From Candidatus Altiarchaeales archaeon ex4484_96 (GTDB lineage: Archaea; Altiarchaeota; Altiarchaeia; IMC4; QMZM01): a stretch of DNA of 64,000 bases. The notes beneath the pieces were generated by a model. It saw only the letters and a program-made list of their open reading frames with translations, did no database searches and had not been told where the DNA came from. Position 1 is the first letter of the stretch, and every line of letters begins with the position of its first letter. The stretch is from contig NJDH01000003.1 in assembly GCA_002254405.1 (NCBI GenBank), positions 5,080 through 69,079 on the forward strand, read 5' to 3'. Of the stretch, positions 18,648 to 52,705 are shown in pieces. The position numbers and the translations under genes are program-made.

Positions 18648-19058
18648 CTAGCGGTACTGGTCTAATACATCGATTATTTTTTTTATTTCTTCTTCGTTGT
18701 ATTTGAACCGCTCTTTAGCGAAAACAGCTCTTATGTCGTCGACGGTTTCCGGCAGTATGTTGCAGATTTTGATTAGTTGTTCCTCTGACAGTCCCAGATC
18801 TAGTTCAGCCAGTTTCTGCTTCATTTCATTGACTTCTTTGGACGTTAATTTCGATGCTCTTCTGGCGTGCTCTAATGCTCTTTTCTGCTCGTAAAGCATT
18901 TCTTTTTCTTCTGTCTGGTATTCTTTTTCTTTTTTCTCCAGTATTTTTCTGACATCTACGAGGGGTATGTATTTATCGTCTATGATTTCCATTTTATATC
19001 TTTTATTGGGTGGGGGTGAGGTGTTCTGGTTCCTGCGGTATCCTTTTGAGCCCTTCAT
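18648..19058 (-). CDS. rpoF: DNA-directed RNA polymerase subunit F (Rpb4 homolog). The true start is probably the internal MEIIDD Met
   Basis: LEHARRASKLTSKEVNEMKQKLAELDL..ICNILPETVDDIRAVFAKER matches the RpoF pattern. Confidence 0.6.
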   Translation of the reverse strand: MKGSKGYRRNQNTSPPPNKRYKMEIIDDKYIPLVDVRKILEKKEKEYQTEEKEMLYEQKRALEHARRASKLTSKEVNEMKQKLAELDLGLSEEQLIKICNILPETVDDIRAVFAKERFKYNEEEIKKIIDVLDQYR

Positions 19059-19596: not shown

Positions 19597-20259
19597 GTGA
19601 TTTTTATGCCCGAGCAAAATAACAAAACACCACCAACACTGAAATTTACCATAGCCGCGGTTTTCGCAGCATTGACCCTCATTCTCTCAATAGCACCGCT
19701 TCCCTCCATAGGAGCCGGAGCAATCCTGTTCAACCTATACAAGCCCAGCGAATTATTCCTCCAGCTTGGTTTTCTAACAATGGCTTTAGGTTCCTTCACC
19801 ATAACTCTCCTAATGATTCGGCGTAAATGGATTGCCATCAGCCTGGCAGTAATACTGCAAATTCTTTTCTTTATAGCACCAGGAAACGTCTTTGTTCCAG
19901 CATGGGCTCTATGGGATAAGTTCCTGGCAATCCTATTAATCTATCCGGCCTCGGTTCTGGTGGATAAAACATTCAAATCAGAAATAAACGCTAAACTCCT
20001 ATTCCCCACAGTCCTCCTTTTGGCTTTCATAGGATTGGAGGTGGATGCTATGGCCGGTAACCTGCTTTTCGGGGTCTATGGATACGAGCTCATCGGCGTA
20101 AGCGCCGAACAGGTCGCTGGGATGTATCAGCCCTTTGCCTTCGCTGCGGCAGAAGAACGTCTGGCAGTAGCTTTAGTGTCTGCTTTTTTGACAACACCCC
20201 TAGTTTGGGCTGTGAAAGCTAACCCGCAGATTAGCTGGCTTATTGTAAGGGGAAGGTAA
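19597..20259 (+). CDS. Polytopic membrane protein, candidate ECF-transporter S component
   Basis: About 6 TM, about 200 aa. It is immediately upstream of, and abutting, the ECF ATPase and T genes. Confidence 0.45.
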   Translation: MIFMPEQNNKTPPTLKFTIAAVFAALTLILSIAPLPSIGAGAILFNLYKPSELFLQLGFLTMALGSFTITLLMIRRKWIAISLAVILQILFFIAPGNVFVPAWALWDKFLAILLIYPASVLVDKTFKSEINAKLLFPTVLLLAFIGLEVDAMAGNLLFGVYGYELIGVSAEQVAGMYQPFAFAAAEERLAVALVSAFLTTPLVWAVKANPQISWLIVRGR

Positions 20260-38026: not shown

Positions 38027-39232
38027 ATGAAGCCTTGTTGGAATAAGCTTGTGGCGTCGTTGATTGTGCTGGCTTTATTTTTTAATATGGTGCAGCTTGT
38101 TTCCTCTGATGCTCACAGCCATCCTAAATTAGACCCTACCTCCTTGTTAGGCAGTTTAGAGAAAACCAAGACCGGTTCTGTTGTTGCAGAGCTTTTCACT
38201 AAATCAAATGTTATGCTGGCGCAGCGCGCGTTTTATATTTTTGTTGTTGGATATATCATCAACACGATTGCTGAAGACATTGAAAATAATTTTTCCAAGC
38301 ATATCCTATTAAATCCAGATTTGAAAAACCCGGCGGCATTAAACCTGCTTCGTTACTTTATCGGGTTGCTTTATCCCGTGTATATTCTTGCGATTGTTGT
38401 CACAGGGTTTTATATTATTTTTATCCCTGGCTCTCCTGTCGGCAGGTTCAGGGCGAAGTCGTTGCTGGGTAAGCTTATCATTAGTATGGTTTTGGTTTCA
38501 ATATCCCCTGAGCTGATGGGGTGGCTGCTTTTGTTGACTGAGGAATCCACCCGGGAGATAATAGGGGATGATGAAAACATCAGGGCTTATGTTAGAATAG
38601 CTGCTAATGAGTTTTCCTCTATGATAAAGACCATCCGCAACCTGATTATTTTAGGTAATGCACCGAATCTTTTATGGGCTGGGGCAGGAACTCTAAGCAG
38701 CGTTTTAGGTATATTGAAAGGAAGCGCCCATGGTTTTCTGGGCAACGCAGGGCATTTTATGCACGCTATTGAGATTTTTGAGATAGAGACTGTGTGGACT
38801 GTCCCCCTTCTTATGCTGATGGTTCTTGTGATAATCGGGGTCTATGGTCTGCTTGCCATAAGGTATTTTATGGTATTGCTTTGGGCTATGCTGCTGCCTT
38901 TCACTATTTTTCTCTCATCTTTCGAGTTCACGCGCGGTTTCGGGAAGACCATGCTTGAGCAGACCCTCTTATGGAGCAGCCTGCAGGTTTTTTATGGCAT
39001 CACTATAGTGGTTATTGCCGTGGGTATCACGATTGTTCCATCAAGCATGTATGAGTCCTATGGTATAGGCATCTATAAGGGTGATGTCATAGGATTAGGC
39101 TCGGTTATGGAGTCATTGGATATAGCTGGAGAGCCTTTTTTTGTCAGCATATTCACATGGTCCAGCATGTTTATGTTGTTTTTGGGACCTATTTTGATGT
39201 TCACTTTTTTCCAGAAACTACTTCCACCGTAA
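38027..39232 (+). CDS. Polytopic membrane protein, paralog 1 of 5. It has a signal peptide, a ~90-aa ectodomain, a hairpin module (TGFYIIFIPGSPVGRFRAKSLLGKLIISMVLVSISP) and a C-terminal multi-TM domain
   Basis: Shared motifs with the paralogs: PxYxxAxxxTGFYxxF..SP.GR.KAKS.L.KL..S.VL.S.SP, and later RYF.VLLWA.L.PF..F.SSF.FTR..G..MLEQT.LWSS.Q. Confidence 0.65.
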   Translation: MKPCWNKLVASLIVLALFFNMVQLVSSDAHSHPKLDPTSLLGSLEKTKTGSVVAELFTKSNVMLAQRAFYIFVVGYIINTIAEDIENNFSKHILLNPDLKNPAALNLLRYFIGLLYPVYILAIVVTGFYIIFIPGSPVGRFRAKSLLGKLIISMVLVSISPELMGWLLLLTEESTREIIGDDENIRAYVRIAANEFSSMIKTIRNLIILGNAPNLLWAGAGTLSSVLGILKGSAHGFLGNAGHFMHAIEIFEIETVWTVPLLMLMVLVIIGVYGLLAIRYFMVLLWAMLLPFTIFLSSFEFTRGFGKTMLEQTLLWSSLQVFYGITIVVIAVGITIVPSSMYESYGIGIYKGDVIGLGSVMESLDIAGEPFFVSIFTWSSMFMLFLGPILMFTFFQKLLPP

Positions 39233-39233
39233 T

Positions 39234-40181
39234 ATGAGAAACAAAAGTTTTATTGTTGTTGCCATGGTACTGGCTTTGATGTTTGTTCCCTTAGTGCATC
39301 ATGTAGAGGCATCACATGATTCTCCCGGGCAGGCGTTCGCTAAAAATGTTCCAGACACCTTAACCTTTCTCCTAAAAAGAGTTTTATACTATACTGTGGC
39401 GTTTAATTACGCCAGCCGCGGTCTTGATGTTCTATCATCCAGCCTGGAGGAATTTATCCTCATGAATCCCTCACCCCAGCACCCGGTTGTACTGGATATT
39501 ATCCGGTTTTTTGTCTCGCTTCTGCAACCCTTTTATGTGCTTGCTATTTCTATAACAGGGTTTTATCTTATCTTTGTCTCATCATCTCCTGCAGGAAGAA
39601 ACAAGGCTAAAAGCACATTAATTAAGCTGGTTTTCTCTCTCGTCATCATATCCCTGACTCCTCAGGTGATGACCATAGCATTATATACTACCGAAAATAT
39701 CACCAGCTCTATATTAGGCCAGGCTGACATATCCTACTATACCTATGCGTTAAATGAGGCGATGAACACATTACAGTGGATTCATCTGTGGGCTTCATTG
39801 ATTAACATTGAGATGGGTTATTATTCTTTTCTGCCGCCTTTTTTCATAGTATGGGGTACTTATGTGATGCTTACCTTAAGGTTTATCGCTGTTTTATTGT
39901 GGATTGTTATGTTTCCGCTTGCTGTTTTCCTTTATTCATTTACTTTCACGAAAAACATCGGGAGAAACATGCTTGAGCAAACAATTTTATGGAGCAGCAT
40001 GCAAATATTCAATGCTTTATTGGTGGCTGTGGCAGCAATAGGCATGATATCCAAGGAACCTGGGTTTATGCACATACAAGCCCTTATTTCCGGAATAGAT
40101 ATTATTTTGATTGCGGGTGTGTTTAGTTTGGTTGTTGCTCCCGCTTTGATGTTGATTTGGTTCAGGAATTTTTTGCCTTAA
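39234..40181 (+). CDS. Polytopic membrane protein, paralog 2 of 5 (hairpin SSSPAGRNKAKSTLIKLVFSLVIISLTP)
   Basis: Same motif set as paralog 1. The start is 2 nt after the previous stop. Confidence 0.65.
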   Translation: MRNKSFIVVAMVLALMFVPLVHHVEASHDSPGQAFAKNVPDTLTFLLKRVLYYTVAFNYASRGLDVLSSSLEEFILMNPSPQHPVVLDIIRFFVSLLQPFYVLAISITGFYLIFVSSSPAGRNKAKSTLIKLVFSLVIISLTPQVMTIALYTTENITSSILGQADISYYTYALNEAMNTLQWIHLWASLINIEMGYYSFLPPFFIVWGTYVMLTLRFIAVLLWIVMFPLAVFLYSFTFTKNIGRNMLEQTILWSSMQIFNALLVAVAAIGMISKEPGFMHIQALISGIDIILIAGVFSLVVAPALMLIWFRNFLP

Positions 40182-40185
40182 AAAA

Positions 40186-41367
40186 ATGAAAAAAAACAAA
40201 ATAAGGGTTCGAAAGATTGCAATGGTTTTGCTCATCATTATTGTTTTATCGTTGAATGTTAACTCCCAGTTTTTAACGGATTTATGGAGCAACACAAAAA
40301 AACACTTCAAGGGTGAAGGATTACTTAACCCTAAATCGTTTTTCGGTGAGAGCATCGGGTACTTCATCAGGATGATTCTGGTGGTGAAGGTGATATACGG
40401 GGGATTTATCCCAAAATATGCATTGTCCTTCCCGCATAATTTTTATGAGGCTATAATGTCTAATCCATCCCCTTATGACCCTGGCATATTTAATCTGCTG
40501 GTGTTCATGATTAAAATACTTCAACCGGTTTATATCATGCTTATTCTGGCTGCCGGGTTTTATGTGCTTTTCATGCAGTCGTCTCTTTCATCACGCTCTA
40601 AGGCGAAGAATCTGCTTATCAGACTTTTGATTTCGATGCTTGTTTTATCGCTTTCCATCCCGATAATAAATCTTTTGCTGGGTTTATCAGAGGGTGTTAC
40701 TGAATCGGTTTTTGGCCTTATTAGCAGGCAGGAGATAAAGCATACATTGGGCGGTGCAGTCCATAATCTTTTTTGGGTTTATGCTTTGACAGCAGTTCCT
40801 CACACAGACATAGGACTACCTTATTTAACCCTTCTTTTTGCGATGGCGTTTCTCCCATATATAGTTCTTGGTTTGCGTTATATACTAATAACCATGTTCA
40901 TGGTCTTGTTCCCTCTTGGAGTGTTTTTCTACACCCTCCCCTGGCTTAAGGGGATAGGCAAAAAGATACTAGAACAGCTTATTGTGTGGATCTTTTTGCA
41001 GATTTTTATTGCATTGATTATTGTGGTGTTCGTCGGTATCGGCTTGACCATAGAAGATCATGTAGTCTATAACGCCAAGATATCCTTATCTAATCTTAGG
41101 GGCATGTATGATGTTACCGGAATGCTTGCTTTAACCCCAACAGGTATTGATGTCGGTAAATATTTTGGTTTCTGGGGTGTGCTGCTTGGTGGAGTAATCG
41201 GCGCGGGTGTGGGGGTTGCCCCGATAGAGTTTCTCCTGTGCCACTTTTATGAGGCCCTGCCGGCAACCATAAACATCGTGTATTTCGTACTGGGGGCTAC
41301 AATATATGCAATGCTCGCTATTTTCCCTCTCATATGGTCCCATCACCTCCATGATTTCCTACCATGA
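40186..41367 (+). CDS. Polytopic membrane protein, paralog 3 of 5 (hairpin QSSLSSRSKAKNLLIRLLISMLVLSLSIP), with a Gly-rich extra C-terminal TM domain
   Basis: Same motif set. Ends with GVLLGGVIGAGVGVAPIEF. Confidence 0.65.
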   Translation: MKKNKIRVRKIAMVLLIIIVLSLNVNSQFLTDLWSNTKKHFKGEGLLNPKSFFGESIGYFIRMILVVKVIYGGFIPKYALSFPHNFYEAIMSNPSPYDPGIFNLLVFMIKILQPVYIMLILAAGFYVLFMQSSLSSRSKAKNLLIRLLISMLVLSLSIPIINLLLGLSEGVTESVFGLISRQEIKHTLGGAVHNLFWVYALTAVPHTDIGLPYLTLLFAMAFLPYIVLGLRYILITMFMVLFPLGVFFYTLPWLKGIGKKILEQLIVWIFLQIFIALIIVVFVGIGLTIEDHVVYNAKISLSNLRGMYDVTGMLALTPTGIDVGKYFGFWGVLLGGVIGAGVGVAPIEFLLCHFYEALPATINIVYFVLGATIYAMLAIFPLIWSHHLHDFLP

Positions 41368-42440
41368 AAAACAAAACAAAAACCCTGGTATTGGCTTTGA
41401 TTTTGGTTTATTTAGCGGGGGCGCTCTCGTTGGATGTGTTAGCCACTAAAATGAAGGGCGCTTATTCCAAGGCACCCTGGGGTGAGGGATTCATTAATGT
41501 CTTTACCTCGGAAGCGGCTAAGTTTTCCAGGAAAGGTCTTATAATCTGGTCTGGTAGTCTGGTTCATGATTTTTATCTCAGCATTTACCCTAACATGCCC
41601 ACATTAATAACAGCTAATCCCCCTATGTGGAGTATCAAGCATTTCATGGGTTTCTTCATCAATCTCATAGAGCCGTTTTATATTGTGGCTATTATGTTAA
41701 CGGGGTTTTATATTATTTTTGTCTCACAGTCTCCTGTAAACCGGGCTAAGGCAAAAAAATGGTTTGGGAAGCTTATAATAGGGTTGGTTCTCATCTCCAT
41801 ATCACCCCTCCTCGTTGAAGTACTGTATTTTATCTCCAGCAACCTCTCAAAGCAGATTATGAATCTCGCTGACGTGGAGCTGGCCTTGGGTTCGTTTAAG
41901 GCAGCCTCGCAGGGTTTATGGGATATGTTCAAATATCTGACAATGATACACAGATACGGTGGCGTGGAGATATTCCTCATTGATACCGTGGTAATGATGG
42001 CATTGTATCTTATCATGTTTATGAGATATATTATGGCTGGTTTATTGGCTGTGCTTTTGCCTGCAGCATTGTTTTTTTATTCATGGGATTTAACCAGAAA
42101 CGTGGGGAAGATGATGTTTGAGCAATTGATTATATGGATTTTCATGCAGATGGGTTGGGCTGTTGGGTTGGTTATTGTCTCTGTTGCAGTGGTTACGTTA
42201 CCGTCTGTTGCTCCTAGTATGCCGATAGAGTTCTTGTATATCACATCGCTTCTTTTTATGATGGCTGTTCCGTTCATGATACTTGGTGTTATGAACTGGA
42301 TGGGTTTGTCGATTTTCATGTTCGAGGTTGTGCAGGCCGCTCCCTTAAGCAGCGGTGCTGTGTTGTTTGGTGAAACCACGATAGAGAGGAAACCCGTGGT
42401 TGAGGAGGAGGTGATTGTTAAGCCACCGGAGGATTACTGA
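41364..42440 (+). CDS. Polytopic membrane protein, paralog 4 of 5 (hairpin SQSPVNRAKAKKWFGKLIIGLVLISISP)
   Basis: Same motif set. 4-nt overlap with the upstream gene. Confidence 0.65.
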   Translation: MKNKTKTLVLALILVYLAGALSLDVLATKMKGAYSKAPWGEGFINVFTSEAAKFSRKGLIIWSGSLVHDFYLSIYPNMPTLITANPPMWSIKHFMGFFINLIEPFYIVAIMLTGFYIIFVSQSPVNRAKAKKWFGKLIIGLVLISISPLLVEVLYFISSNLSKQIMNLADVELALGSFKAASQGLWDMFKYLTMIHRYGGVEIFLIDTVVMMALYLIMFMRYIMAGLLAVLLPAALFFYSWDLTRNVGKMMFEQLIIWIFMQMGWAVGLVIVSVAVVTLPSVAPSMPIEFLYITSLLFMMAVPFMILGVMNWMGLSIFMFEVVQAAPLSSGAVLFGETTIERKPVVEEEVIVKPPEDY

Positions 42441-42445
42441 ATAAA

Positions 42446-43942
42446 ATGAATCAATACCCTAAAAGTATCTGGTTTGTTGTTTTCCTTATTATTCTAGCCT
42501 TAACCCTAAACGCCAGCTCATTAAACCTGGGTGAATCATCTCCTTCAAGCGAGTCGGCTGCGGGGGTGGAACAAAGCAGCTGTCGCATTCTGCCGGGCAC
42601 CCCGGAATACGATGAATACATCGAGCCATGCGAGATAGACAGCGATTGCGTGAGGTTTATGAAAGAATACAGCAACCTGATGCAAAAAGACACCTGCGAC
42701 GCATTAAGGGAGACGATAATCGAAGCCTGCGATATAGCCGAAGCCGAGGAAAAGGAGGTATTGATTGCCGTGCAGCTGGGATTAGACCCCCCGGGCGGAA
42801 CAGAGCAAACAGAAAGTCCGCTTGTTGAAGGCAGGGGAGTGAGGTTTTACTCTGACACACCCCTGGCGATGCCCCATGAAAGGCTTTCTGATATCGCAAC
42901 CAACTATTTTGATTTCACGATGAACGAGGGCACCCACATCTATGCTTCGGTCATTGGGGAGAGGGAGGGGCTGAATCCGACAGAATGCTCTACCACGGTT
43001 GAAACATGGAATGAAGGTATTCATTCCTCTGATCATACGGTGAACGAGATGGTGGACAGCGCACTCGCTATTATTCTAAGCGCTGAAGGGAAACATCATA
43101 GTGGTCTAATCAAGTGGATGGAAAGTGTAACAGGTTTTATTCATTTACCCCTCACCGAGGCTGTTAAGTCAGAGTTCGCTAAGTCTTTCGGGGGCAGGTT
43201 TCTTGTCGGATGGCTTGGGGTTAAAATAGGAATACTCGACAAGCTTGAGGTAATGTGCAATGACATAGACTACTTCATTTTGCTTAAACCTAACCTGACC
43301 GAACCGGTTGTAGTGAACACCCTGGATTTTTTCATCAACCTGCTTGAGCCATTTTATCTGCTGGCCATCGGCGCAACAATATTTTATCTACTATCCACGT
43401 CATCATCCCCGCTTGGTCGGGCGCGGGCTAAATCCACGCTTCTTAGGATGATAATATCGGTGGGTTTCATCATCCTCACCATACCAATATTCCAACTCCT
43501 ATTGGATTTAACTCACATAATATCAGCCTATACAATGGATTTGGTTGACATCAATATCACCAAAACCTTTTTATGCACTGAATGCATCAACGCCCTCAAC
43601 TACGAGTATCTTGTTATCATGCTGATAGCCTTCTTCACGGGATTGTTTATCGCTTTATTCCAGATAATCTTTTATTTGGGTGCGATGATTATACTGGTTT
43701 TAAGGTATTTTATGGTGATAATGTGGGCGATTTTCTTCCCCTTCACGATTTTTTTCAACTCGTTTCATCTAACCCGGCGTCTGGGTCATGAGATGCTTTT
43801 TCAGACCGGCTGGTGGATTGCGATGCAGTTTATTGAGGCGCTGGTTTTCCTGGTGGATGGCTATGATGATTGTATCGTTTTCGGCTCTGGAGGTGCCCTG
43901 GCTTTCAGGCACAGCCGATATGGCAGAGGAAGCCGAGTTTGA
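42446..43942 (+). CDS. Polytopic membrane protein, paralog 5 of 5, with a ~270-aa Cys-containing N-terminal ectodomain (hairpin TSSSPLGRARAKSTLLRMIISVGFIILTIP)
   Basis: Signal peptide. The ectodomain has CRILPGTPEYDEYIEPCEIDSDC. The motif set is the same as the paralogs (RYFMVIMWAIFFPFTIFFNSFHLTRRLGHEMLFQTGWW). Confidence 0.65.
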   Translation: MNQYPKSIWFVVFLIILALTLNASSLNLGESSPSSESAAGVEQSSCRILPGTPEYDEYIEPCEIDSDCVRFMKEYSNLMQKDTCDALRETIIEACDIAEAEEKEVLIAVQLGLDPPGGTEQTESPLVEGRGVRFYSDTPLAMPHERLSDIATNYFDFTMNEGTHIYASVIGEREGLNPTECSTTVETWNEGIHSSDHTVNEMVDSALAIILSAEGKHHSGLIKWMESVTGFIHLPLTEAVKSEFAKSFGGRFLVGWLGVKIGILDKLEVMCNDIDYFILLKPNLTEPVVVNTLDFFINLLEPFYLLAIGATIFYLLSTSSSPLGRARAKSTLLRMIISVGFIILTIPIFQLLLDLTHIISAYTMDLVDINITKTFLCTECINALNYEYLVIMLIAFFTGLFIALFQIIFYLGAMIILVLRYFMVIMWAIFFPFTIFFNSFHLTRRLGHEMLFQTGWWIAMQFIEALVFLVDGYDDCIVFGSGGALAFRHSRYGRGSRV

Positions 43943-44061
43943 ATCATACAAGAAGGAGGAAATCACGCCACCGGATTCGGTTGGCCCCCCCAAGGGGCCT
44001 TTGTGGTGATAATACTATTTTACCTGTTTAAACCAAATAATTAATTCAATGGGGAAATAAG

Positions 44062-44586
44062 ATGAGATTGGATAAATCCGATTTAAGGGCGTTGGGGTAT
44101 AAGGGTATTGCGGCTGGGTTCATTATTGCAGCGGTTTTGGCTTTCATCTATCAGCTTCTGACTGGAATGCCTTTTATTGTTGGTTTATTGGCGATGTTGT
44201 TGGCGGTTTTCGGGAGTTATCTGGTTTTCATGTCCTTTGAGAAAGAGGTGGTTCCCCCGAAAATGGATGAAGGCGAGTCGATATTACTGGAGAGCATAGA
44301 CCAGGGTTATGTGTTGTTTCCCTCCAGAAGAGGCCGTCTGCTGGGTCGGCGCTCACATAAGTATATGGGCCTTTATCTCACCAACAAGAGAATAATCGGC
44401 AAGGAGATTGATGTGGTCTTGGATATTCCTCTTGAATCCATCAAGTCTGTGGTTTTGGAGAGTAAGCTTTTTAGGGATTATCTGAGAATAAATTATCTTG
44501 TGAACAATGTGGAAAAGGATGTTTTGGTTGTTCCAGGGGATAGCGCTTTATGGAATCAGAAACTAAGAGAGCTTGGAGTGGGCTGA
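44062..44586 (+). CDS. 2-TM membrane protein with a C-terminal PH-like (bacterial PH/GRAM-type) domain
   Basis: Two N-terminal TM helices, then YVLFPSRRGRLLGRRSHKYMGLYLTNKRIIG reminiscent of bPH_2 domains. The call is weak. Confidence 0.4.
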   Translation: MRLDKSDLRALGYKGIAAGFIIAAVLAFIYQLLTGMPFIVGLLAMLLAVFGSYLVFMSFEKEVVPPKMDEGESILLESIDQGYVLFPSRRGRLLGRRSHKYMGLYLTNKRIIGKEIDVVLDIPLESIKSVVLESKLFRDYLRINYLVNNVEKDVLVVPGDSALWNQKLRELGVG

Positions 44587-45338
44587 AGAGGCTTATTTTT
44601 TTGTTGGTTTTGTTTACCCTGTTCCCCCCCTTCCAAGCACATGCTCAGTGTACTGGATCACCCCAGCCGGGTGCTTCATGCCACGGGTACATCCTCAGCA
44701 GCGCAGATATAAGCAACCCAACGGCTCAATGCAGTGATATGTCGCCTAAGCTTGTTGAGCTGCTTAACTGCATGGAGGGCTATCTACCTGAGAAGGCGAA
44801 GGTTATAAGCTCGGTCTCTGATTCACAGGGCATGGATCGGTGCATTCCAAGTGAACACAGCAGACCACCTTGTGCTCATGTCATTTATTCATGCCACTAT
44901 GGGGGGAGGGATTGCATTGGCCAATCCTATGCGGTGGATTTTAAAAACAGCGAATGCTATGCTGAGATAAGGCAGGCTTTGGCTTACTGCGGCGGAGGCA
45001 GGATTAAAACATACTCAACACACATCCACGTAAGTGTGGGGTGTGAAAATGGATGCAACTGTGACTGCGGTTTGACTAAAGTAAACCCTGTCACACCAGA
45101 ATTTAATGCTGTGGCGAAGGTGGGGAAAACAGCAACCAGCATTGAAGAGAAAAACGTTATTGTTAAAGTGGGGGATATGGTCTATTTTGATGCCAGTGAT
45201 TCCGTTGGCGTGGGCAGTTTCAGTTGGGATTATGCTGACGGGAACACAGCAACGGGAGCATCCCCCTCACACAGTTTTTCCTCTGAGGGAACCTATACTG
45301 TGGCCTTGACTTTCACCGGAAACCTCAACCTCGGTTAA
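44550..45338 (+). CDS. Secreted Cys-rich protein with one PKD repeat. It is probably the 5' segment of a longer gene interrupted by a frameshift
   Basis: Signal LIFLLVLFTLFPPFQAHA. 14 Cys. PKD motif SFSWDYADGNTATG. The stop is at 45336-45338, while frame +1 stays open from 45310 through 46107. Confidence 0.55.
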   Translation: MESETKRAWSGLKRLIFLLVLFTLFPPFQAHAQCTGSPQPGASCHGYILSSADISNPTAQCSDMSPKLVELLNCMEGYLPEKAKVISSVSDSQGMDRCIPSEHSRPPCAHVIYSCHYGGRDCIGQSYAVDFKNSECYAEIRQALAYCGGGRIKTYSTHIHVSVGCENGCNCDCGLTKVNPVTPEFNAVAKVGKTATSIEEKNVIVKVGDMVYFDASDSVGVGSFSWDYADGNTATGASPSHSFSSEGTYTVALTFTGNLNLG

Positions 45339-45512
45339 TCAAAAAACAATCACCATAGGCGTTGGGGACACAGCTTTCTTTGACGCAAGCCAGTCTATCG
45401 GAACCGGAAGTTTCAGTTGGGATTATGCTGACGGGAACACAGCAACGGGAGCATCCCCCTCACACAGTTTTTCCTCTGAGGGAACCTATACTGTGGCCTT
45501 GACTTTCACCGG
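45216..45512 (+). repeat. Two perfect 104-bp direct repeats (45216-45319 and 45409-45512) inside the PKD-coding regions, in different reading frames
   Basis: agtttcagttgggattatgctgacgggaacacagcaacgggagcatccccctcacacagtttttcctctgagggaacctatactgtggccttgactttcaccgg is present twice. Confidence 0.85.
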
Positions 45513-46107
45513 GTTAACCGCTCAGGCGGCGGTTAGAAGCAGCTGGGAATCAGAACAGGTTCAGGAGGTAGAGTGCTGTGAAATATGCATAGAGATATGG
45601 GGTGAGATGTGCGGCGGATACGCGAATTGCTCGAAAGACTGTGAATCATGCTGCGGGGACTGGTGCAAGGATTTGGATGACGAACCGGTTAAAAAACAGT
45701 GCGAGGCCGTGTGCGAAGGCAGATGCAAAAGCTATTTTGCTGTAAGTGAAATACTTGGTTTGATTTCCACGGTATCCATTATCCTTGCGGCAATAATCTT
45801 TGCACTCCATGCAATAGCATTATTGGTTTCTTTCGGACCCTATGAGCGAAGCGAAGCGAAAAGATCAATTAAGTATGTGATTATTGTCTTGGTCCTGTTT
45901 GCTCTAATATTTCATATAGTCAACATTTTGTATGCACCTTTTAGGGTTCCTGGGGGGGAAACCACCAACCCAACATGTCTAGATTGCTCTAATATACAAA
46001 CATGCAGTGATTATAACATGTATCTGGGTTACCAGGATTGCATATTAAATGTATGTGATGTTCACGATACCTGTTATGTGGATAAAGACCAACAGTGTGC
46101 GAGCTGA
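45310..46107 (+). CDS. Continuation segment in frame +1 relative to the previous CDS. It has a second PKD repeat, a Cys-rich region (CCEICIEIWGEMCGGYANCSKDCESCCGDWC), a C-terminal hairpin module (FGPYERSEAKRSIKYVIIVLVLF) and a Cys-rich tail
   Basis: There is no ATG before the GTG at 45493. The frame is open from 45310. The PKD copy is identical over 104 nt to the copy in the upstream segment. Confidence 0.45.
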   Translation, partial: LSPETSTSVNQKTITIGVGDTAFFDASQSIGTGSFSWDYADGNTATGASPSHSFSSEGTYTVALTFTGLTAQAAVRSSWESEQVQEVECCEICIEIWGEMCGGYANCSKDCESCCGDWCKDLDDEPVKKQCEAVCEGRCKSYFAVSEILGLISTVSIILAAIIFALHAIALLVSFGPYERSEAKRSIKYVIIVLVLFALIFHIVNILYAPFRVPGGETTNPTCLDCSNIQTCSDYNMYLGYQDCILNVCDVHDTCYVDKDQQCAS

Positions 46108-46251
46108 AGTATAATCCCCCATATAGCTGCGATTATTATGGGGTGGCAAGCTGCACCATGAACCCCTGTGAAATAGAGGGAAGTTGCATGGGGGATATAA
46201 CAAATAGTGTGTGTGTTTCTGATTAAAGCAGTTAACTCCCTTTGTTAATAT

Positions 46252-47346
46252 TTGTTTTATCATATTCTTGGTCTATATTATACTATAATGGATTACCTGA
46301 AGCAGCCCGGGCGGCTTTATATTTATCTCATCGGTCTGGTGCTTTTTTTTGTTACATTATCGGTTATGCTAAGATTTTTTGATGTATTCGTTTACGCCCT
46401 CTTCATATACTACATCACCCAGCCGATTAAGAAAAGACTAGACAATCGTATTAAATCCCCAAACCTGGTTATCGCAGTATCGCTTTTCGTTCTCGTACTC
46501 CCTGTTATACTCGCAGGGTTATATGCGATGAGCGTGGCATCATACGAGCTGAACCTGCTATTATCCGCCAACAGCCTGCTTGTGGATGAATACCTCAGCA
46601 GCGGATTAACCAGGCTTGAGGAAATCTATCTCAATATGCAAGCCGTGGACCTGCTATACTACCTAAAAGAAGGAAGCATAGCAGTATACGATAACCTCAT
46701 ACTCCTCCTATACCATATCGCGGACATAATATTCAAGCTAATAATAACGTTTATTCTATCATACTATTTCCTGAGATACCACACCCAAATCAAAAAATAT
46801 TATACTGAAACATTCACCCCATCCGGGGGCAAGACGCTAACCGCATACACCGAAGCCGTGGACGCAGCATTACAGAAGATATTCTTCGGTAACATAATCA
46901 CCATCATGGTAACATCGCTTATCGGGGTGCTGGTGTTTCATCTATTCAATGCTTTCGCCAGCCCGCAGATGCAGATACCCTACCCCCTACTATTCGGCAT
47001 ACTATGCGGTTTGGGGACGCTTGTGCCGGCGGTGGGTATTAAAATCATCTGGGTGCCCTTGTTCGCTTACATGGGATTAGAGGCTTACCTTAATAATCTG
47101 CTGGCTTCCGAGTGGCCTATATTATTAGGTTATCTTATCGTAGTCAATGTTTTCGTTGACTTCACGCCTGACCTGCTGCTTAGGCCTCTTGTAAGCGGCA
47201 AAGACATGCACAAGGGGTCCCTGATGCTGGCCTACATCTTCGGTCCGGCGGTATTCGGTTTCATGGGCTTGTTTCTGGGGCCGATTATTCTGATTCTTAT
47301 AATAAAATTCTCTAAGATTATTGTCCCGGAACTCAAAGATGGATGA
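46252..47346 (+). CDS. AI-2E family (UPF0118/PerM-like) transporter
   Basis: 8-TM, 364-aa protein with the characteristic C-terminal LLRPLVSGKDMHKGSLMLAYIFGPAVFGFMGLFLGP motif. Confidence 0.6.
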   Translation: MFYHILGLYYTIMDYLKQPGRLYIYLIGLVLFFVTLSVMLRFFDVFVYALFIYYITQPIKKRLDNRIKSPNLVIAVSLFVLVLPVILAGLYAMSVASYELNLLLSANSLLVDEYLSSGLTRLEEIYLNMQAVDLLYYLKEGSIAVYDNLILLLYHIADIIFKLIITFILSYYFLRYHTQIKKYYTETFTPSGGKTLTAYTEAVDAALQKIFFGNIITIMVTSLIGVLVFHLFNAFASPQMQIPYPLLFGILCGLGTLVPAVGIKIIWVPLFAYMGLEAYLNNLLASEWPILLGYLIVVNVFVDFTPDLLLRPLVSGKDMHKGSLMLAYIFGPAVFGFMGLFLGPIILILIIKFSKIIVPELKDG

Positions 47347-48637
47347 GAAAATATTCGGCACCTCAGGGGTCAGAAGACTGGTTGAAGACATGCCTAAAGC
47401 GTTTATATTATCCCTGGCTGCAGCTCTGGCAGCAGCATCAAAAGACGAGTTTATTGCAGTGGGAGCTGACCCGAGGAAAAGCTCCCCTGAAATAAAACAA
47501 AGCTTTATTTTAGGCCTTATAAACTGCGGTAAAAAAGTCGTTGATTTAGGTATGGTGCCCACCCCGACCACGGCGATGGCCTCAGAGCAGTACGGCACAT
47601 CGGTGATGATAACAGCATCACATAATCCACCCGAATATAATGGATTTAAGTTCTGGGCTGAGGGCAGAGCATTCACACCAGAACAAGAGAAGCATATTGA
47701 GAGACTGTTTTTTTCAGGGAAAACCAACGAAGCTGAGATTAAAGACACGAAGACAATTAAAGTCGATTATTTGCCTAAACACGAAAGCAGGATACTTAAA
47801 GCCTTAGGCGGGGTTGATATGAAAGTGGATATCCTGGTTGACTGCGCTAACGGCGCCGGCTGCGTTATCACCCCACGGCTTCTTGAGAAGATGGGATGTT
47901 CGGTCACAGGCATAAACACGCGAACAGATGGGGTTTTCGCTCACGGGCTTGAGCCCACCCGAGAAAACCTAGCTGAAGTGTGCGATATGGTTAGGGAAGC
48001 AGGAGTTGATGTCGCGGTAGCGCATGACGGGGACGCCGACCGCACCGCAGCAATAGACGCAGATGGTAAACTGGTTGACTGGGATTCTTTTCTTTCGGTG
48101 TTGGCTTACGGTAAAGATAAGGTTGTTACAACAGTAGATGCCTCCATGAGGATAGAAGAAGTCTGCGGGCAGGTTATCCGTACCCCAGTGGGCGATGTTC
48201 ACGTGGCTAATGCGGTTGAGAAATATAAAGCGGATTTTGGGGGGGAACCCTCTGGCTCATTTATTTATCCAAGCGTGCATTTATTCCCTGACGGGGTTTA
48301 TACGGCCGCGTTAACAGCCAAGATGGTTTCAGAAAACAGGTTCTATGAGATACTTGACTTGATAAAAGAGTATCCTACCTCAAGGCTTAAGCTGCCGTGC
48401 GCCGAATCAGACAAAAAAAGGATAATGGATTTGGTCTCGCATAAAGCCTCTAAACTGGATTATGAGCTTAACACCATAGACGGAGTCAGGTTATCAAGTG
48501 ATGAAGGCTGGTTTCTTATCCGCCCCTCTGGAACCGAATCCTTTATCAGAATAACAGCAGAAGCTCAAACAAAAAAACAGCTTAACTCTTTGTTAAAGGT
48601 GGGCAGGGAGCTGGTTGAGATGTCCAGCACACGTTAG
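47321..48637 (+). CDS. Phosphohexomutase (GlmM/ManB family: phosphoglucosamine or phosphomannomutase)
   Basis: Active-site phosphoserine loop TASHNPPEYNGFKF and metal-binding DGDADR. 438 aa. Confidence 0.85.
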   Translation: MSRNSKMDEKIFGTSGVRRLVEDMPKAFILSLAAALAAASKDEFIAVGADPRKSSPEIKQSFILGLINCGKKVVDLGMVPTPTTAMASEQYGTSVMITASHNPPEYNGFKFWAEGRAFTPEQEKHIERLFFSGKTNEAEIKDTKTIKVDYLPKHESRILKALGGVDMKVDILVDCANGAGCVITPRLLEKMGCSVTGINTRTDGVFAHGLEPTRENLAEVCDMVREAGVDVAVAHDGDADRTAAIDADGKLVDWDSFLSVLAYGKDKVVTTVDASMRIEEVCGQVIRTPVGDVHVANAVEKYKADFGGEPSGSFIYPSVHLFPDGVYTAALTAKMVSENRFYEILDLIKEYPTSRLKLPCAESDKKRIMDLVSHKASKLDYELNTIDGVRLSSDEGWFLIRPSGTESFIRITAEAQTKKQLNSLLKVGRELVEMSSTR

Positions 48638-49062
48638 ATATCGCAAAGTATCTGGCTAATCCATAAACCATCCTTTTTTTTGACAAAAAAATCATGTAAT
48701 GTGACTGCCTTAATCCCTGATTTCAGTGTGTGTTTATCCGGGTTGATTTTCTCCCCAAAAGCCTTCACTTTAAGGTAGTATTTTTTTTTCTTATCGAGTG
48801 TTATCTGGTATTCGCTGTAAAGCATTTTTTTTGTCTCGAAAAGATAAATTAGCTCCGAGAGAAAATCATGAAGGAGCATGTCTAGATCAAAGCATTCGAA
48901 TTCTAATACAGTGGATGTTTTTTTCCCTATGGAATCAAGGTCCGCTATGCTGTGCGTTAATGCTTTAGCTGAGTTGATAAAGCATTCATCAAGCGTTTTA
49001 CCGTAAGCCCGGTATTTGAGGTCAGCGCTGTGTTTTAGAAACCTGAATTCTTTCAATTTCAC
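48634..49062 (-). CDS. Archease (the RtcB activator)
   Basis: 142 aa. The FRFLKHSADLKYRAYGKTLDECFINSAKAL start matches the archease family (FEFLEHTADIKF..). Confidence 0.8.
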   Translation of the reverse strand: MKLKEFRFLKHSADLKYRAYGKTLDECFINSAKALTHSIADLDSIGKKTSTVLEFECFDLDMLLHDFLSELIYLFETKKMLYSEYQITLDKKKKYYLKVKAFGEKINPDKHTLKSGIKAVTLHDFFVKKKDGLWISQILCDI

Positions 49063-49232
49063 TTATCTACTACATCCAGTTTCTCTGCTTTGATGTCGGC
49101 GATACAGCCTTTTGGTTCGGCAAGTATCTTATCGCATACAAGGCACCTGATGACGGTAGAAGCTCTCTCAAATATAACCTGCTCGTTTCCGCAGTCGGTG
49201 CATTTAATCCTTAGAAACCTGCTTTCGCTCAT
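49059..49232 (-). CDS. rps27e: Ribosomal protein S27e (57 aa). It is absent from the supplied ORF track, being under 60 aa
   Basis: The manual reverse-strand translation is MSESRFLRIKCTDCGNEQVIFERASTVIRCLVCDKILAEPKGCIADIKAEKLDVVDK. This is a C4 zinc ribbon typical of eS27. The TGA stop overlaps the archease ATG (ATGA). Confidence 0.75.
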   Translation of the reverse strand: MSESRFLRIKCTDCGNEQVIFERASTVIRCLVCDKILAEPKGCIADIKAEKLDVVDK

Positions 49233-49510
49233 AGTATCTCAGTCCTCTTCCTGCTTCTGGACCTGTAGTTTTTCTGGTGTTTTTTGCCGCAGTTTTTGCA
49301 CTTAAGTACTGCAACAGTTCTTTTACCTATCTTGTATACGTCTTTTTTGGGTGTTCGGGGGGAGCCCTTGTATCCCTTCTTGACCTGCTCGTATTTTCTC
49401 CTGCCCTCTTTCATACCTGTTTCCTTTCCTTTCTTGTTAAGCGACACATCATGCTGTGTGTGTTTTTTACAGCTTGGGCAGTATGCGCTCATAATTTTGG
49501 GTAGTTTCAT
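49229..49510 (-). CDS. rpl44e: Ribosomal protein L44e (eL42)
   Basis: MKLPKIMSAYCPSCKKHTQHDV...CKNCGKKH zinc ribbon with a Lys/Arg-rich tail. The L44e-S27e gene pair is conserved in archaea. Confidence 0.8.
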   Translation of the reverse strand: MKLPKIMSAYCPSCKKHTQHDVSLNKKGKETGMKEGRRKYEQVKKGYKGSPRTPKKDVYKIGKRTVAVLKCKNCGKKHQKNYRSRSRKRTEIL

Positions 49511-49559
49511 CTTGGAGATAATATTAATGTATTATACCAATAAAAGTTATTTAAGCTAT

Positions 49560-50612
49560 TCAAACCCTTTTTTTATCCTCCTGGGTTAATTTAGAGACAT
49601 TAACTCCCAGATAAAAGGCAGCTATGACCCCGATAATCGAGGGTATCAGATAAATAAAGACCCGGTTCATCAGGGTGCCCATCGTCGCGTATTCTCTGCT
49701 GATAATCACACCAGTGTAGGGTGATATGATACTAAATAACTCCACAGAGGTCCACTCCCATATACCGAGTGCCCCGGGCAGAAGAGGCAGAAACGAAACC
49801 GTTGAGACCATGGTTTCCACCACGACAATGGTAGGTAATGCGATGCTGATTCCAAGCGCCATAAAGGATACGTAAAGCCTTAGCACACGAAGTATCCATA
49901 CAAGCATCGAGATGAATATCCCCTGGCTGATAATCCATTTATCAAGGAGCTGCAGTTTCATGGCTTCATCGAATCTATTTGTTATCTCATCGAAGTTGTC
50001 TTCTATTTTATCGCTGTATCTTTTGAAAAAAGGCATTATTGATATTATTTTGGTTAATAGCCTAAGCAGGGTGCTTGAATAGGTTTTATGGTATGTTATG
50101 CCGATGACGGCGGCAAATAAGACACCCAAAATCAAAGCCATTAATAGCAGCAAAAACGATACTGCGGCAGGCACACCGCTTGAGAGGACTATGCCAATCG
50201 ATAATAGTATCATGATAAAAATCGGAAGAATCTCCAGGGCAAGATCCACGATAACGGATGAGGCAGCCGTAGGCATGCTGATTTCATCCGTCTTATAGAG
50301 GAGATAAGCCCTTATTGGCTCTCCGCCTGCTAATCCCACGGGTGTTATGTTGTTAACCAGGTAGCCTATGAATGTTGATGGGATGATGTTTTTCATGCTG
50401 ACCTTCGAGTATCTTAAAACCACCCGCCATTTAAGGGCAGCAAGTACCATGATAGCAACCTGGATGGTTAAAAGCCCGCTTAGATAAAAGATTAGCTCTC
50501 CTCTGGGCATTTCAGCTAGCTTATCCTGGATTTTTGTGAGGTCAAGTGTCTGGAAAAGCGCGATTATCAGTATAATCCCGACCAAGAAAAAAACCATAGT
50601 CCGCCGCTTCAT
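49560..50612 (-). CDS. UPF0104/LPG-synthase-TM-like (flippase-like) membrane protein
   Basis: 8-TM, 350-aa protein with KWRVVLRY...GYLVNNITPVGLAGGEPIRAYLL matching the family motif. It is divergent from a GT2 gene. Confidence 0.55.
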   Translation of the reverse strand: MKRRTMVFFLVGIILIIALFQTLDLTKIQDKLAEMPRGELIFYLSGLLTIQVAIMVLAALKWRVVLRYSKVSMKNIIPSTFIGYLVNNITPVGLAGGEPIRAYLLYKTDEISMPTAASSVIVDLALEILPIFIMILLSIGIVLSSGVPAAVSFLLLLMALILGVLFAAVIGITYHKTYSSTLLRLLTKIISIMPFFKRYSDKIEDNFDEITNRFDEAMKLQLLDKWIISQGIFISMLVWILRVLRLYVSFMALGISIALPTIVVVETMVSTVSFLPLLPGALGIWEWTSVELFSIISPYTGVIISREYATMGTLMNRVFIYLIPSIIGVIAAFYLGVNVSKLTQEDKKRV

Positions 50613-50659
50613 TTTACATATATTTATATCGCCTAGTAGAATAACTTTATACTTTCAAA

Positions 50660-51370
50660 ATGAAGGTATCAGTTATCATTCCCGCATACAACGAGGAAAA
50701 AGACATAGGTAAATGCCTTAAATCAATTAAGGAAAACAAGTATAAAAATTTTGATGTAATAGTCGTAGACGCGGGCTCAACCGACAAGACGATTGAGATT
50801 GCGAAAGAATACACGGATAGGGTTTTAAGCGTTCATACCTCAGCCCCGGGGCCTGCAAGAAACATTGGTGTTAAGGAATCTGATGCTGAGGTAGTGGCCT
50901 TCACGGATGCTGATACTGTGGTTGCAGCTAATTGGGTGGCAGAGATGGCCGCTAAATTCACAGACCCTGATGTCGTGGGGGTCGGGGGTGTTCTTAGGCC
51001 GCTTGAACCGCGTTTGCTGGATAAGATTATGTTTAAGATTAACTCCGATTTATGGTATCGTTTCACCGCAATCTTTGGTTTTTTCCAGCTTGGAACACCA
51101 AACTGCGCCTACAGGCGGGATGCTTTCCTTGAGGTGGGGGGATTTGATGAGACCATGAGCATGCTTGAGGATACCGAGCTCTCTCTTAGAATGGGTCGCG
51201 AAAAAAGGGGCAAAATAATCATAGATAAGAGTTTAATTGCCTATAACTCGGCGAGGCGCTTTAAGCAGGAAGGCTATCTGCGGGTGTTTTTGCGCTATCT
51301 TAAGGCTTACTTTAATATGTTCACGAAAAGAGGGGTTAAATCAGAGCACTTTGATGTGATAGACCACTAG
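50660..51370 (+). CDS. Family 2 glycosyltransferase
   Basis: VSVIIPAYNEE, VVDAGSTD and FTDADTVV (DxD) motifs. Confidence 0.8.
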   Translation: MKVSVIIPAYNEEKDIGKCLKSIKENKYKNFDVIVVDAGSTDKTIEIAKEYTDRVLSVHTSAPGPARNIGVKESDAEVVAFTDADTVVAANWVAEMAAKFTDPDVVGVGGVLRPLEPRLLDKIMFKINSDLWYRFTAIFGFFQLGTPNCAYRRDAFLEVGGFDETMSMLEDTELSLRMGREKRGKIIIDKSLIAYNSARRFKQEGYLRVFLRYLKAYFNMFTKRGVKSEHFDVIDH

Positions 51371-52659: not shown

Positions 52660-52705
52660 ATATTTAGGCTGTCAGTATAAGATATTACATTAAATCTTTA
52701 ATAAA

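Follow-up and report, generated by a model that had tools for sequence, protein, structure and literature searches.

Sequence-specific errors in Illumina reads are triggered by two features, GGC motifs and inverted repeats, and hinder assembly (Nakamura et al., 2011, PMC3141275). A second system that bears on the locus described here comes from the Patescibacteria, which have arrays of VirB2/TrbC-type pilins (bioRxiv 10.1101/2025.01.22.634366). Our subject is a surface-protein gene at 44550–46107 of a 64,000-nt stretch of Altiarchaeota DNA, referred to below as the window, in which the gene is distributed over two reading frames. A sequence-only reading had proposed that it is a single gene, split between two PKD repeats by a genuine pseudogene or phase-variable lesion, by programmed frameshifting, or by an assembly or recombination artefact. 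We show that the two open reading frames (ORFs) are one gene, that 83 nucleotides restore its frame and that the gaps are unique to this version of the sequence. With a probability of roughly 0.85, the two ORFs belong to one gene whose 83-nt and 138-nt gaps arose in assembly.

The first fragment spans 44550–45338, encodes 262 amino acids and ends in ..TFTGNLNLG, with its TAA at 45336–45338. In frame +1, a stop codon at 45307–45309 is followed by an open frame from 45310 to the TGA at 46105–46107. Its translation begins with a second PKD domain, continues through a Cys-rich stretch and a hydrophobic hairpin of two helices, and finishes in a tail that is again rich in Cys. The frames have 29 nt in common (45310–45338), and the earliest ATG, GTG or TTG of frame +1 is the GTG at 45493. 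Nucleotides 45216–45319 and 45409–45512 are 100% identical over 104 nt and are embedded in a 152-nt repeat family with 86% identity. As they stand in the window, the repeat copies are spaced 193 nt start to start, which corresponds to 64 codons plus one base, and it is this extra base that sets the two ORFs out of frame. Reading the window sequence confirmed four earlier observations, namely the ORF end at 45338, the frame open from 45310 with its PKD, hairpin and Cys-rich parts, the lack of an ATG before the GTG at 45493, and the perfect identity of the two repeat copies. The features of the gene are as follows:

44550..45338, + strand: first gene fragment; codons 1–256 are genuine; the fragment matches residues 1–257 of the 592-aa gene of contig L020 identically
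44550..44645, + strand: predicted signal peptide MESETKRAWSGLKRLIFLLVLFTLFPPFQAHA, read from sequence, with a putative cleavage site
44727..45056, + strand: Cys-rich domain with a Hedgehog/LAS-like motif set (SCHYGG...SYAVD...HxHxS) of invariant alignment columns
45156..45317, + strand: PKD domain 1 without its last strand (PKD_4, E 8e-12, profile positions 12–69 of 85)
45216..45319, + strand: repeat copy 1, the initial 104 nt of a 144-nt perfect repeat
3' end of 44550..45338, + strand: end of the first fragment, NLNLG and stop; tail of the PKD1–PKD2 linker read out of frame
45319..45320, no strand: junction dD, 83 nt absent; block present in L020, L025 and L001, and its insertion restores one ORF
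45320..45512, + strand (frame +1): linker tail (..TSTSVNQ) and PKD domain 2 without its last strand (PKD_4, E 3e-11, positions 12–69 of 85)
45409..45512, + strand: repeat copy 2, 104 nt, matching copy 1
45512..45513, no strand: junction dE, 138 nt absent, in frame; block present in L020 and L022
45513..46107, + strand: C-terminal part with Cys-rich region, membrane hairpin and Cys-rich tail; same stop as L020
45748..45930, + strand: VirB2/T4SS_pilin-like two-helix hairpin with loop SFGPYERSEAKRSIKY; PF18895 below cut-off

Over all 64 kb, the window agrees at 99.9–100% with independent assemblies of the same Altiarchaeota population, apart from five gaps that it alone has. Within this gene those assemblies carry 83 additional bases between 45319 and 45320 and 138 between 45512 and 45513. 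L020 is 100% identical to the window over 43854–54365 save for these two blocks and encodes a single ORF of 592 amino acids, with both its start and its stop at those of the window's two-part gene. The 83-nt block (CTCAGGAGCTGATGCC...GCTTATGTTGGGA) encodes SGADAGKSDTDTVEVGVVGFKAIAYVGK; in the window, the dD junction reads CACCGG directly followed by AAACCTCAACC (45314–45330). Because 83 equals 27 × 3 + 2, the loss of this block shifts the frame, and it is the sole source of the frame change. Inserting the 83 nt alone in silico produced an uninterrupted ORF of 546 codons (546 aa), and inserting both blocks produced the exact 592-aa protein of L020. The 138-nt block encodes the last strand of PKD2, a spacer and a conserved C.CTG.CHG.E motif, which is kept in the homologues P0002, P0003 and P0005. 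Its break lies at the same repeat position in copy 2 as the dD break does in copy 1. With the blocks restored, the PKD repeat recurs every 276 nt (92 codons) and has a core of 144 nt that is perfectly repeated; the 104 nt shared by the two copies in the window are what is left of this core, the remainder of which is absent there.

The 83 nt are also present in L025 and in the low-coverage contig L001, which come from other samples and another assembler. None of the three other contigs that cross 45319 carries the dD junction, and no contig in the JGI collection has a junction of the window type; two metagenome scans returned only the known JGI contig. Overall, the window junction was absent from all other assemblies compared, which represent at least six samples or runs. 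The sources of the contigs include Logan runs SRR7051284 and SRR6301444, JGI 3300021471 and the ENA assemblies ERZ23491060, ERZ27248172 and ERZ2433807. The 262-aa product of this gene and a 498-aa product of the window have no exact match on record. The proposal of one split gene is borne out by the single 592-aa ORF in L020 with its 100% identical flanks, while the lesion is not the 1-nt indel error that had been envisaged; it is the loss of an 83-nt block plus an in-frame loss of 138 nt. A suspected second lesion near ~46100 proved to be a frame break common to all assemblies, hence genuine and unrelated.

A contig from another genus, L002, is syntenic at about 72% DNA identity and has the same architecture and 276-nt period. 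Its gene is broken by a 100-N scaffold gap inside the same repeat, and replacing the Ns with the 8 nt that the second repeat copy predicts gave one ORF of 934 amino acids. The comparison with relatives that had been recommended for this locus thus upholds a single gene, read in one frame once L002 is repaired. In the genome-contig scan, L002 was the only further archaeal genome, and the remaining matches were to Patescibacteria or unclassified bacteria. Our first homology search was dominated by generic PKD proteins; the informative matches were P0001, P0002, P0003, P0005 and the patescibacterial fusions.

The five blunt gaps peculiar to the window measure 229, 81, 128, 83 and 138 nt. The three that lie outside the gene, together with the other gene split by one of them, are:

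19029..19030, no strand: junction dA, 229 nt absent; takes out most of the gene for ribosomal protein L21e
19713..19714, no strand: junction dB, 81 nt absent, in frame, within a 244-aa membrane-protein gene
42446..44009, + strand: upstream 563-aa membrane-protein gene, in the window a 498-aa ORF plus a tail ORF, split by dC
43853..43854, no strand: junction dC, 128 nt absent; block present in 6/6 other contigs

The L21e gene is intact (94 aa) in all seven other contigs, and the gene directly upstream (42446–44009) is broken in the same manner as the gene at 44550–46107. An apparent further gap at 18997 is in fact a 10-N gap of a comparison scaffold. The comparison contigs have faults as well: the SPIRE scaffold contains 10-N gaps and has lost 20 nt, the PKD repeat of L022 may be collapsed, and L001 ends 3' in foreign sequence.

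The lesion occurs in one assembly only and a similar lesion hits the indispensable L21e gene, as would be expected of an assembly artefact. The sequences at the breakpoints point in the same direction. Each of the five left flanks has GG as its last two bases; three of the five junctions are of the type GG/C, and the other two abut inverted repeats. That dD and dE start at the same nucleotide in the two repeat copies is expected of a technical break determined by sequence. We infer a technical cause, in which reads would drop out past a GGC motif or an inverted repeat where coverage is low, and the flanking pieces would then be joined without a gap marker. In the gene at 44550–46107, such a process may have removed 83 nt just 3' of repeat copy 1, shifting the frame, and 138 nt in frame at the matching position of copy 2. 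Assemblers do not usually join contigs that share no overlap without introducing Ns, which counts against this route. The sequence GTTAAC was found at three breakpoint ends, an association for which read dropout does not account. Deletion mediated by microhomology (CCGG or GG, suggested by the comparison with L001) was dropped, as all five junctions have 0–1 nt of microhomology against L020.

The most serious alternative, which we nevertheless consider unlikely, is a real deletion variant: a strain that truly lacks the 83-nt, the 138-nt and the three other blocks, and in which the surface-protein gene is a pseudogene. The junctions are clean, with flanks 100% identical to the other assemblies, and three of the five gaps fall in two adjacent envelope-protein genes, a kind of gene often eliminated by pressure from phages or hosts. 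L001 and L022 moreover represent other structural versions of the gene, whether circulating or assembled. Such a strain would, however, also have lost most of L21e while showing essentially no point substitutions in 64 kb, and its junction occurs in none of the other assemblies, which cover six or more samples or runs. The shared starting nucleotide of dD and dE and the GG before all five left ends argue for a sequence-dependent technical process instead. The genuine pseudogene proposed earlier accordingly found no support, with a junction seen in no other assembly and four more gaps of the same kind, L21e included.

It is very improbable that the five losses are real and sequence-directed in a sub-population, each following a GG and three having ends at GTTAAC; a candidate mechanism would be cutting by a nuclease or a restriction-type enzyme, after which the ends are joined. 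The window would then represent an archaeal genome with targeted short deletions, two adjacent envelope-protein genes being among those inactivated.

Less probable still is a repeat-mediated rearrangement or a phase or length variation, in which recombination or slippage between the identical PKD cores turns the gene off. A perfect in-frame repeat of 144 nt lends itself well to recombination, and the JGI contig L022 is one 276-nt unit shorter, with a 500-aa gene; this single-copy version may itself be a collapse, since the repeat exceeds the usual assembly k. Recombination between the copies would change the length by 276 nt and keep the frame; it cannot produce an 83-nt loss with its right end in unique sequence. 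The earlier suggestion of an assembly or recombination artefact holds for the kind of event, an artefact, and for the same reason fails for recombination or a mis-join between the copies. No homopolymer or short tandem tract was found in 45310–45338, and with no simple repeat at the junction and a difference consisting of an 83-nt unique coding block, the idea of a phase-variable gene falls away.

A programmed +1 ribosomal frameshift joining the frames within 45310–45338 during translation is hardly credible: the 29-nt overlap and the downstream frame without an ATG start would suit it, yet a single frame is native both to L020, from the same population, and to the repaired L002 of the other genus, PKD1 would be left without its last strand in a shifted product (its Pfam match ends at 69/85), and the overlap (CTTTCACCGGAAACCTCAACCTCGGTTAA) contains neither an X XXY YYZ heptamer nor a stop-adjacent re-pairing codon (e.g. 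CUU UGA), so that the frameshift scenario of the sequence-only reading is left with no slippery motif and with relatives that read one frame.

We therefore reject phase variation, a programmed frameshift and a pseudogene common to the whole population. To take the locus at face value and annotate it as pseudogene, phase-variable gene or site of recoding is unwarranted. The preferred reading, one gene with gaps from assembly, carries a warning for the whole 64-kb sequence, in which no fewer than five gaps are hidden without a marker (at 19029, 19713, 43853, 45319 and 45512). The genes beside them (L21e, the 244-aa and 563-aa membrane proteins and the 592-aa gene) should be read from intact alleles.

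In the natural population, the intact gene encodes 592 amino acids. A signal peptide is followed by the Hedgehog/LAS-like domain, which is rich in Cys and disulfides, and by two PKD domains of 92 residues each; after these come a Cys-rich module, the VirB2-like hairpin of two membrane helices and a tail that is again rich in Cys. The N-terminus is conserved (L002, MDSETKGAGRGL..; P0003, MDSETKGAWRGL..). H116, D130, H158 and H160 are invariant among two archaeal and four patescibacterial sequences. A profile search of the PDB with the Cys-rich domain returned Sonic hedgehog N-domains as its sole matches (E 0.4–0.9), and a Foldseek search with a model of this domain (pLDDT 69) gave no match. The domain may tentatively be viewed as a Hedgehog/LAS-like putative zinc peptidase.

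The PKD matches (PF18911/PF00801) score 45.5 and 43.6 bits in the window, against a cut-off of 27. In the intact gene, the score is 88.6 bits for two full-length copies, covering profile positions 12–85 of 85. The region 45513–46107 is 51% identical to P0002 residues 16–330. Within the intact protein, the hydrophobic segments 468–506 and 509–540 flank the short charged loop SFGPYERSEAKRSIKY. The hairpin scores 21–22 bits for PF18895 (22.1 in the window), below the cut-off of 26.6; the homologues P0003, P0005 and P0023 carry PF18895, and homologues with 52–56% identity in this region bear that annotation. Further PF18895 proteins are encoded in the same genome at 989–4168 and 41364–42440, and the other operon genes at 33229–44586 had no Pfam or NCBIfam match, apart from weak PF18895. 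Judged from its sequence, the protein would be anchored in the membrane in the manner of a pilin and would present a hydrolase-like domain on its PKD spacers. The interest of the intact gene lies in an Altiarchaeota protein that unites a Hedgehog/LAS-like Cys-rich domain with a VirB2-like hairpin. The same two modules occur in Patescibacteria in the reverse order.

Compared with known systems, the lesion resembles the breaks of short-read assemblies at tandem repeats. The break in the gene lies inside the 144-nt perfect repeat, the MEGAHIT contig L021 stops 141 nt into this repeat (k = 141), and the L002 scaffold has 100 Ns at the same place. Three of the five window gaps, in contrast, lie outside repeats. 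Gaps caused by Illumina sequence-specific errors (PMC3141275) are matched by the left breaks in the window, which follow GG and lie at a GGC or an inverted repeat; unlike such gaps, the window flanks abut with no Ns and no overlap, and the GTTAAC at several break ends is not predicted by the published model.

The hairpin resembles T4SS pilins of the VirB2/TrbC type (PF04956, PF18895) in its two helices and short charged loop, in the annotation of homologues as PF18895, and in the patescibacterial proteins P0023, P0027, P0046, P0049 and P0078, in which this hairpin and the Cys-rich domain likewise occur together. The Altiarchaeota protein differs from these pilins in being about six times longer, with a large extracellular N-terminal extension, and in its archaeal host; among the operon genes at 33229–44586, within this window, Pfam and NCBIfam searches found no VirB4-type ATPase. 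With LAS zinc peptidases and the Hedgehog N-domain (H-x-D, H-x-H), the Cys-rich domain shares the invariant set SCH116YGG...AVD130...H158-x-H160-x-S, which aligns with the Sonic hedgehog stretches SLHYEGRAVD...HIHCSV, whose aligned residues are the zinc ligands of Hedgehog. It departs from them in that seven additional residues, Cys among them, separate the His from the Asp, and in its 14 Cys in about 140 residues. Finally, a tandem pair of canonical 92-residue PKD units behind a signal peptide is also found in archaeal PKD-repeat surface proteins, and the PKD homology matches include proteins of Bathyarchaeota and Methanoregula. In the present protein, unlike in these, the units serve to space a catalytic-looking domain from a membrane hairpin, and within each genome homogenisation has made the 3' halves of the units 100% identical.

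In the window, the surface-protein gene at 44550–46107 is read in two frames, as the sequence-only reading had described:

44550–45338: first ORF, 262 aa, ending in TYTVALTFTGNLNLG before the TAA at 45336–45338
45310–46107: frame +1, open to 46107 after a stop at 45307–45309, reading TSTSVNQKTITIGVGDTAFFDAS and containing the second PKD domain

Downstream of PKD2, frame +1 encodes a stretch rich in Cys, then a pair of long hydrophobic helices and a Cys-rich tail. Its earliest candidate start is the GTG at 45493, with no ATG ahead of it, as had been stated, and the two 104-bp repeat copies (45216–45319 and 45409–45512) indeed show no difference. Both copies lie inside a 152-nt repeat of 86% identity. 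They are 193 nt apart in the window (64 × 3 + 1) and are therefore one base out of frame. PKD_4 was matched in both pieces (Pfam; E 8e-12 and 3e-11), each match ending at profile position 69/85. The gene closes a row of unannotated envelope genes on one strand (33229–46107), two of which have weak matches to T4SS_pilin (PF18895).

Exact matches to the neighbouring protein of 174 aa led to six contigs of the same population, from other samples and assemblers. The 57-kb scaffold L020 is 100% identical to window 43854–54365 and 99.8% identical to 34178–43853, where the two differ only by a 10-N gap in L020 and by 12 nt that L020 lacks next to that gap. L020 contains three blocks that the window does not, of 128 nt (at 43853/43854), 83 nt (45319/45320) and 138 nt (45512/45513). 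Its gene is one 592-aa ORF sharing start and stop with the window, which bears out the proposal of a single split gene. Inserted in silico, the 83 nt alone gave an uninterrupted 546-codon ORF and both blocks together the exact L020 protein; with the 138 nt only, the stop stayed at codon 263. The 83-nt block is thus the whole cause of the split. It codes for SGADAGKSDTDTVEVGVVGFKAIAYVGK, the last strand of PKD1 plus a linker; the 138-nt block codes for the last strand of PKD2, a spacer and the motif C.CTG.CHG.E, which is kept in the homologues P0002, P0003 and P0005. With the blocks restored, the repeat has a period of 276 nt (92 codons) and a perfect core of 144 nt, and the PKD matches extend to 85/85. 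The 83 nt were also present in L025 (MEGAHIT, another sample) and L001 (SPAdes).

Contig L022 (JGI Ga0190359_1013495, 2180–3682) contains the 138 nt and one PKD unit only; its gene (500 aa) is shorter by exactly one 276-nt unit, either because the 144-nt perfect repeat collapsed during assembly or because the allele truly has a different copy number. L001 (ERZ2433807 NODE_130210) is a low-coverage contig (2.5x) that departs from the locus exactly before GTTAAT (L001 position 1251). Past the linker, at 1252–2460, it holds the upstream region and coding sequence of an NMT1-family binding protein absent from the window, and is either chimeric or a rearranged allele. Elsewhere, a 965-aa PKD and transglutaminase-like gene (30266–33163, minus strand) is split into several called genes in the comparison scaffold (L026 5086–8984), which, unlike the window, lacks 20 nt at window ~30620–30640. 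There are 10-N gaps in the public comparison scaffold as well, and neither assembly is free of faults.

Relatives were sought with the conceptually joined protein as query, and few specific ones were found. P0002 (664 aa, 48% identity) is encoded on L002, a contig of a different Altiarchaeota-like MAG whose DNA is ~72% identical to the window in full synteny. Here no gene was called for the N-terminal half, an ORF (1719–2600) that enters a 100-N scaffold gap inside PKD1, and P0002 starts directly after this gap. The PKD cores of L002 are mutually identical, with a period of 276 nt from landmark spacing. With the 8 nt that copy 2 predicts in place of the 100 Ns, the locus became one 934-aa ORF. 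Assemblies of two genera therefore break at the same repeat, and the relative's gene is a single one.

We compared all 64 kb of the window with independent contigs, which cover every part of it at 99.9–100% identity. Structurally, the window itself departs from them in only five places, each a blunt loss with no Ns at the join:

19029/19030 (dA): 229 nt, most of the ribosomal protein L21e gene removed
19713/19714 (dB): 81 nt (27 codons), in frame in a 244-aa membrane-protein gene
43853/43854 (dC): 128 nt, splitting the upstream 563-aa multi-pass membrane-protein gene
45319/45320 (dD): 83 nt, frame change in gene 44550–46107
45512/45513 (dE): 138 nt, in frame in gene 44550–46107

L21e is intact (94 aa) in 7/7 other contigs, and dA also yields a false 136-aa ORF (18648–19058), an extension of RpoF/Rpb4. 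Through dC, the 563-aa gene reads as a 498-aa ORF (42446–43942) and a tail ORF (43788–44009), so that this gene, like 44550–46107, is falsely split.

The junctions have 0–1 nt of microhomology, a value that rules out a de Bruijn mis-join and speaks against slippage. GG ends the left flank at all five junctions, as GG/C at three (dC, dD, dE), and inverted repeats adjoin the other two: TTCTGG-GTTAA-CCAGAA at dA and TACGTTAACGTA at dB, where the missing block starts at this palindrome. GTTAAC, with only 13 sites in the 64 kb, coincides with three gap ends exactly or to within 4 nt. Both dD and dE begin at the identical nucleotide of the two repeat copies; the right ends of the five gaps revealed no common pattern. 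Breakpoint position is sequence-dependent. Illumina sequence-specific errors, which lead to coverage loss and assembly gaps, have two published triggers, the GGC motif and the inverted repeat (PMC3141275), and the GG and inverted-repeat part of the breakpoint pattern, apart from its GTTAAC part, fits such errors. L021 (MEGAHIT) ends 141 nt into the 144-nt repeat, showing that other assemblers stall there too. No contig in the JGI collection has the window-type junction.

The split of 44550–46107 is most probably technical, and our confidence that the organism itself does not have the frameshift is roughly 0.85. The artefact scenario put forward earlier probably holds as to its technical origin and fails as to a 1-nt indel, since it is an 83-nt block that restores the ORF. 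A real strain with genuine losses, L21e included, is implausible: it would be viable without L21e yet show essentially no point differences across 64 kb, and the shared starting nucleotide of dD and dE is predicted by a sequence-determined break, not by two independent deletions. Three further proposals of the sequence-only reading fall away. Recombination between the repeat copies would alter the length by 276 nt in frame, the pattern of L022 and not of the window. Phase variation is rejected because the junction has no simple repeat and what differs is a unique block of 83 nt. Programmed frameshifting is dismissed, as the native L020-type allele and the other genus are both in one frame, the frame overlap has no slippery motif and a PKD strand would be absent from the shifted product.

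In PKD1 and in PKD2 alike, the 5′ third is orthologous across the two genera (for PKD2, KTITIGVG.TA.FDAS is common to both). At the two loci compared (window 45168–45512; L002 2421–2910), the 3′ cores are 100% identical within each genome and only 72–84% identical between genera, which indicates repeated, lineage-specific intragenic gene conversion (concerted evolution), a process ordinary for tandem surface-protein domains. Past the genuine stop, window 46086–46226 reads, in frame −1 relative to the gene end, CELKYNPPYSCDYYGVASCTMNPCEIEGSCMGDITNSVCVSD followed by a stop, and is 52% identical to P0002 residues 329–359. The stretch recurs in every assembly and is thus a real remnant, now decayed. 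In the relative, the gene runs on for ~300 further residues, a C-terminal region with AHQDDD and GHIHH motifs that the window species has lost.

The intact protein has 36 cysteines and hydrophobic helices at 468–506 and 509–540, with the loop SFGPYERSEAKRSIKY between them. This hairpin scored 21–22 bits against T4SS_pilin, below the 26.6 threshold; the family is annotated on the homologues P0003, P0005 and P0023. In the alignment, the invariant residues of the N-terminal domain are SCHYGG...SYAVD...HxHxS. Against PDB profiles, the sole hits of this domain were Sonic hedgehog N-domains (E 0.4–0.9), its invariant residues lining up with SLHYEGRAVD and HIHCSV of Hedgehog, the stretches that hold the Hedgehog zinc site. 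Modelling of the domain gave a mediocre structure and the fold search no match, so a possible LAS/Hedgehog-like identity is only a lead.

The same hairpin and Cys-rich domain occur in reverse order in five patescibacterial proteins (P0023, P0027, P0046, P0049, P0078), and the patescibacterial SCHYGG..AVD..HxH domain forms the C-terminal end of pilin-hairpin proteins (loci L004–L019). This domain is otherwise almost confined to Patescibacteria, with only two archaeal genomes among the GTDB species representatives scanned. Co-occurrence in reversed order supports a probable functional pairing of hairpin and Cys-rich domain. In the predicted topology, the signal peptide would be removed, the putative hydrolase-like domain and the two PKD spacers would lie outside the cell, the hairpin in the membrane or a pilus-like polymer, and the Cys-rich tail again outside.

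The window is archaeal, with RFC, archease, RtcB and IleRS genes and a GC content of 44.7%. Its IleRS shares 74–75% identity with proteins under the names Candidatus Altiarchaeota or Altiarchaeales; the ~40 hits that follow are Altiarchaeota as well. It also encodes a larger hairpin protein:

989–4168, plus strand: pilin-hairpin array protein, 1059 aa, ~10–11 tandem VirB2/T4SS_pilin hairpins in one polypeptide

Profile scores for this protein were E 3e-57 for PF18895 (10 stretches) and E 1.6e-19 for TrbC (6 stretches). The first helix of each hairpin unit ends in ..AGxxWxxSDSPExR.., and the upstream ORF (window 122–949; 617 aa in L031) also has PF18895. Whereas the pilin arrays of Patescibacteria consist of separate genes, the units of the 989–4168 protein are fused in one protein, in an archaeal host.
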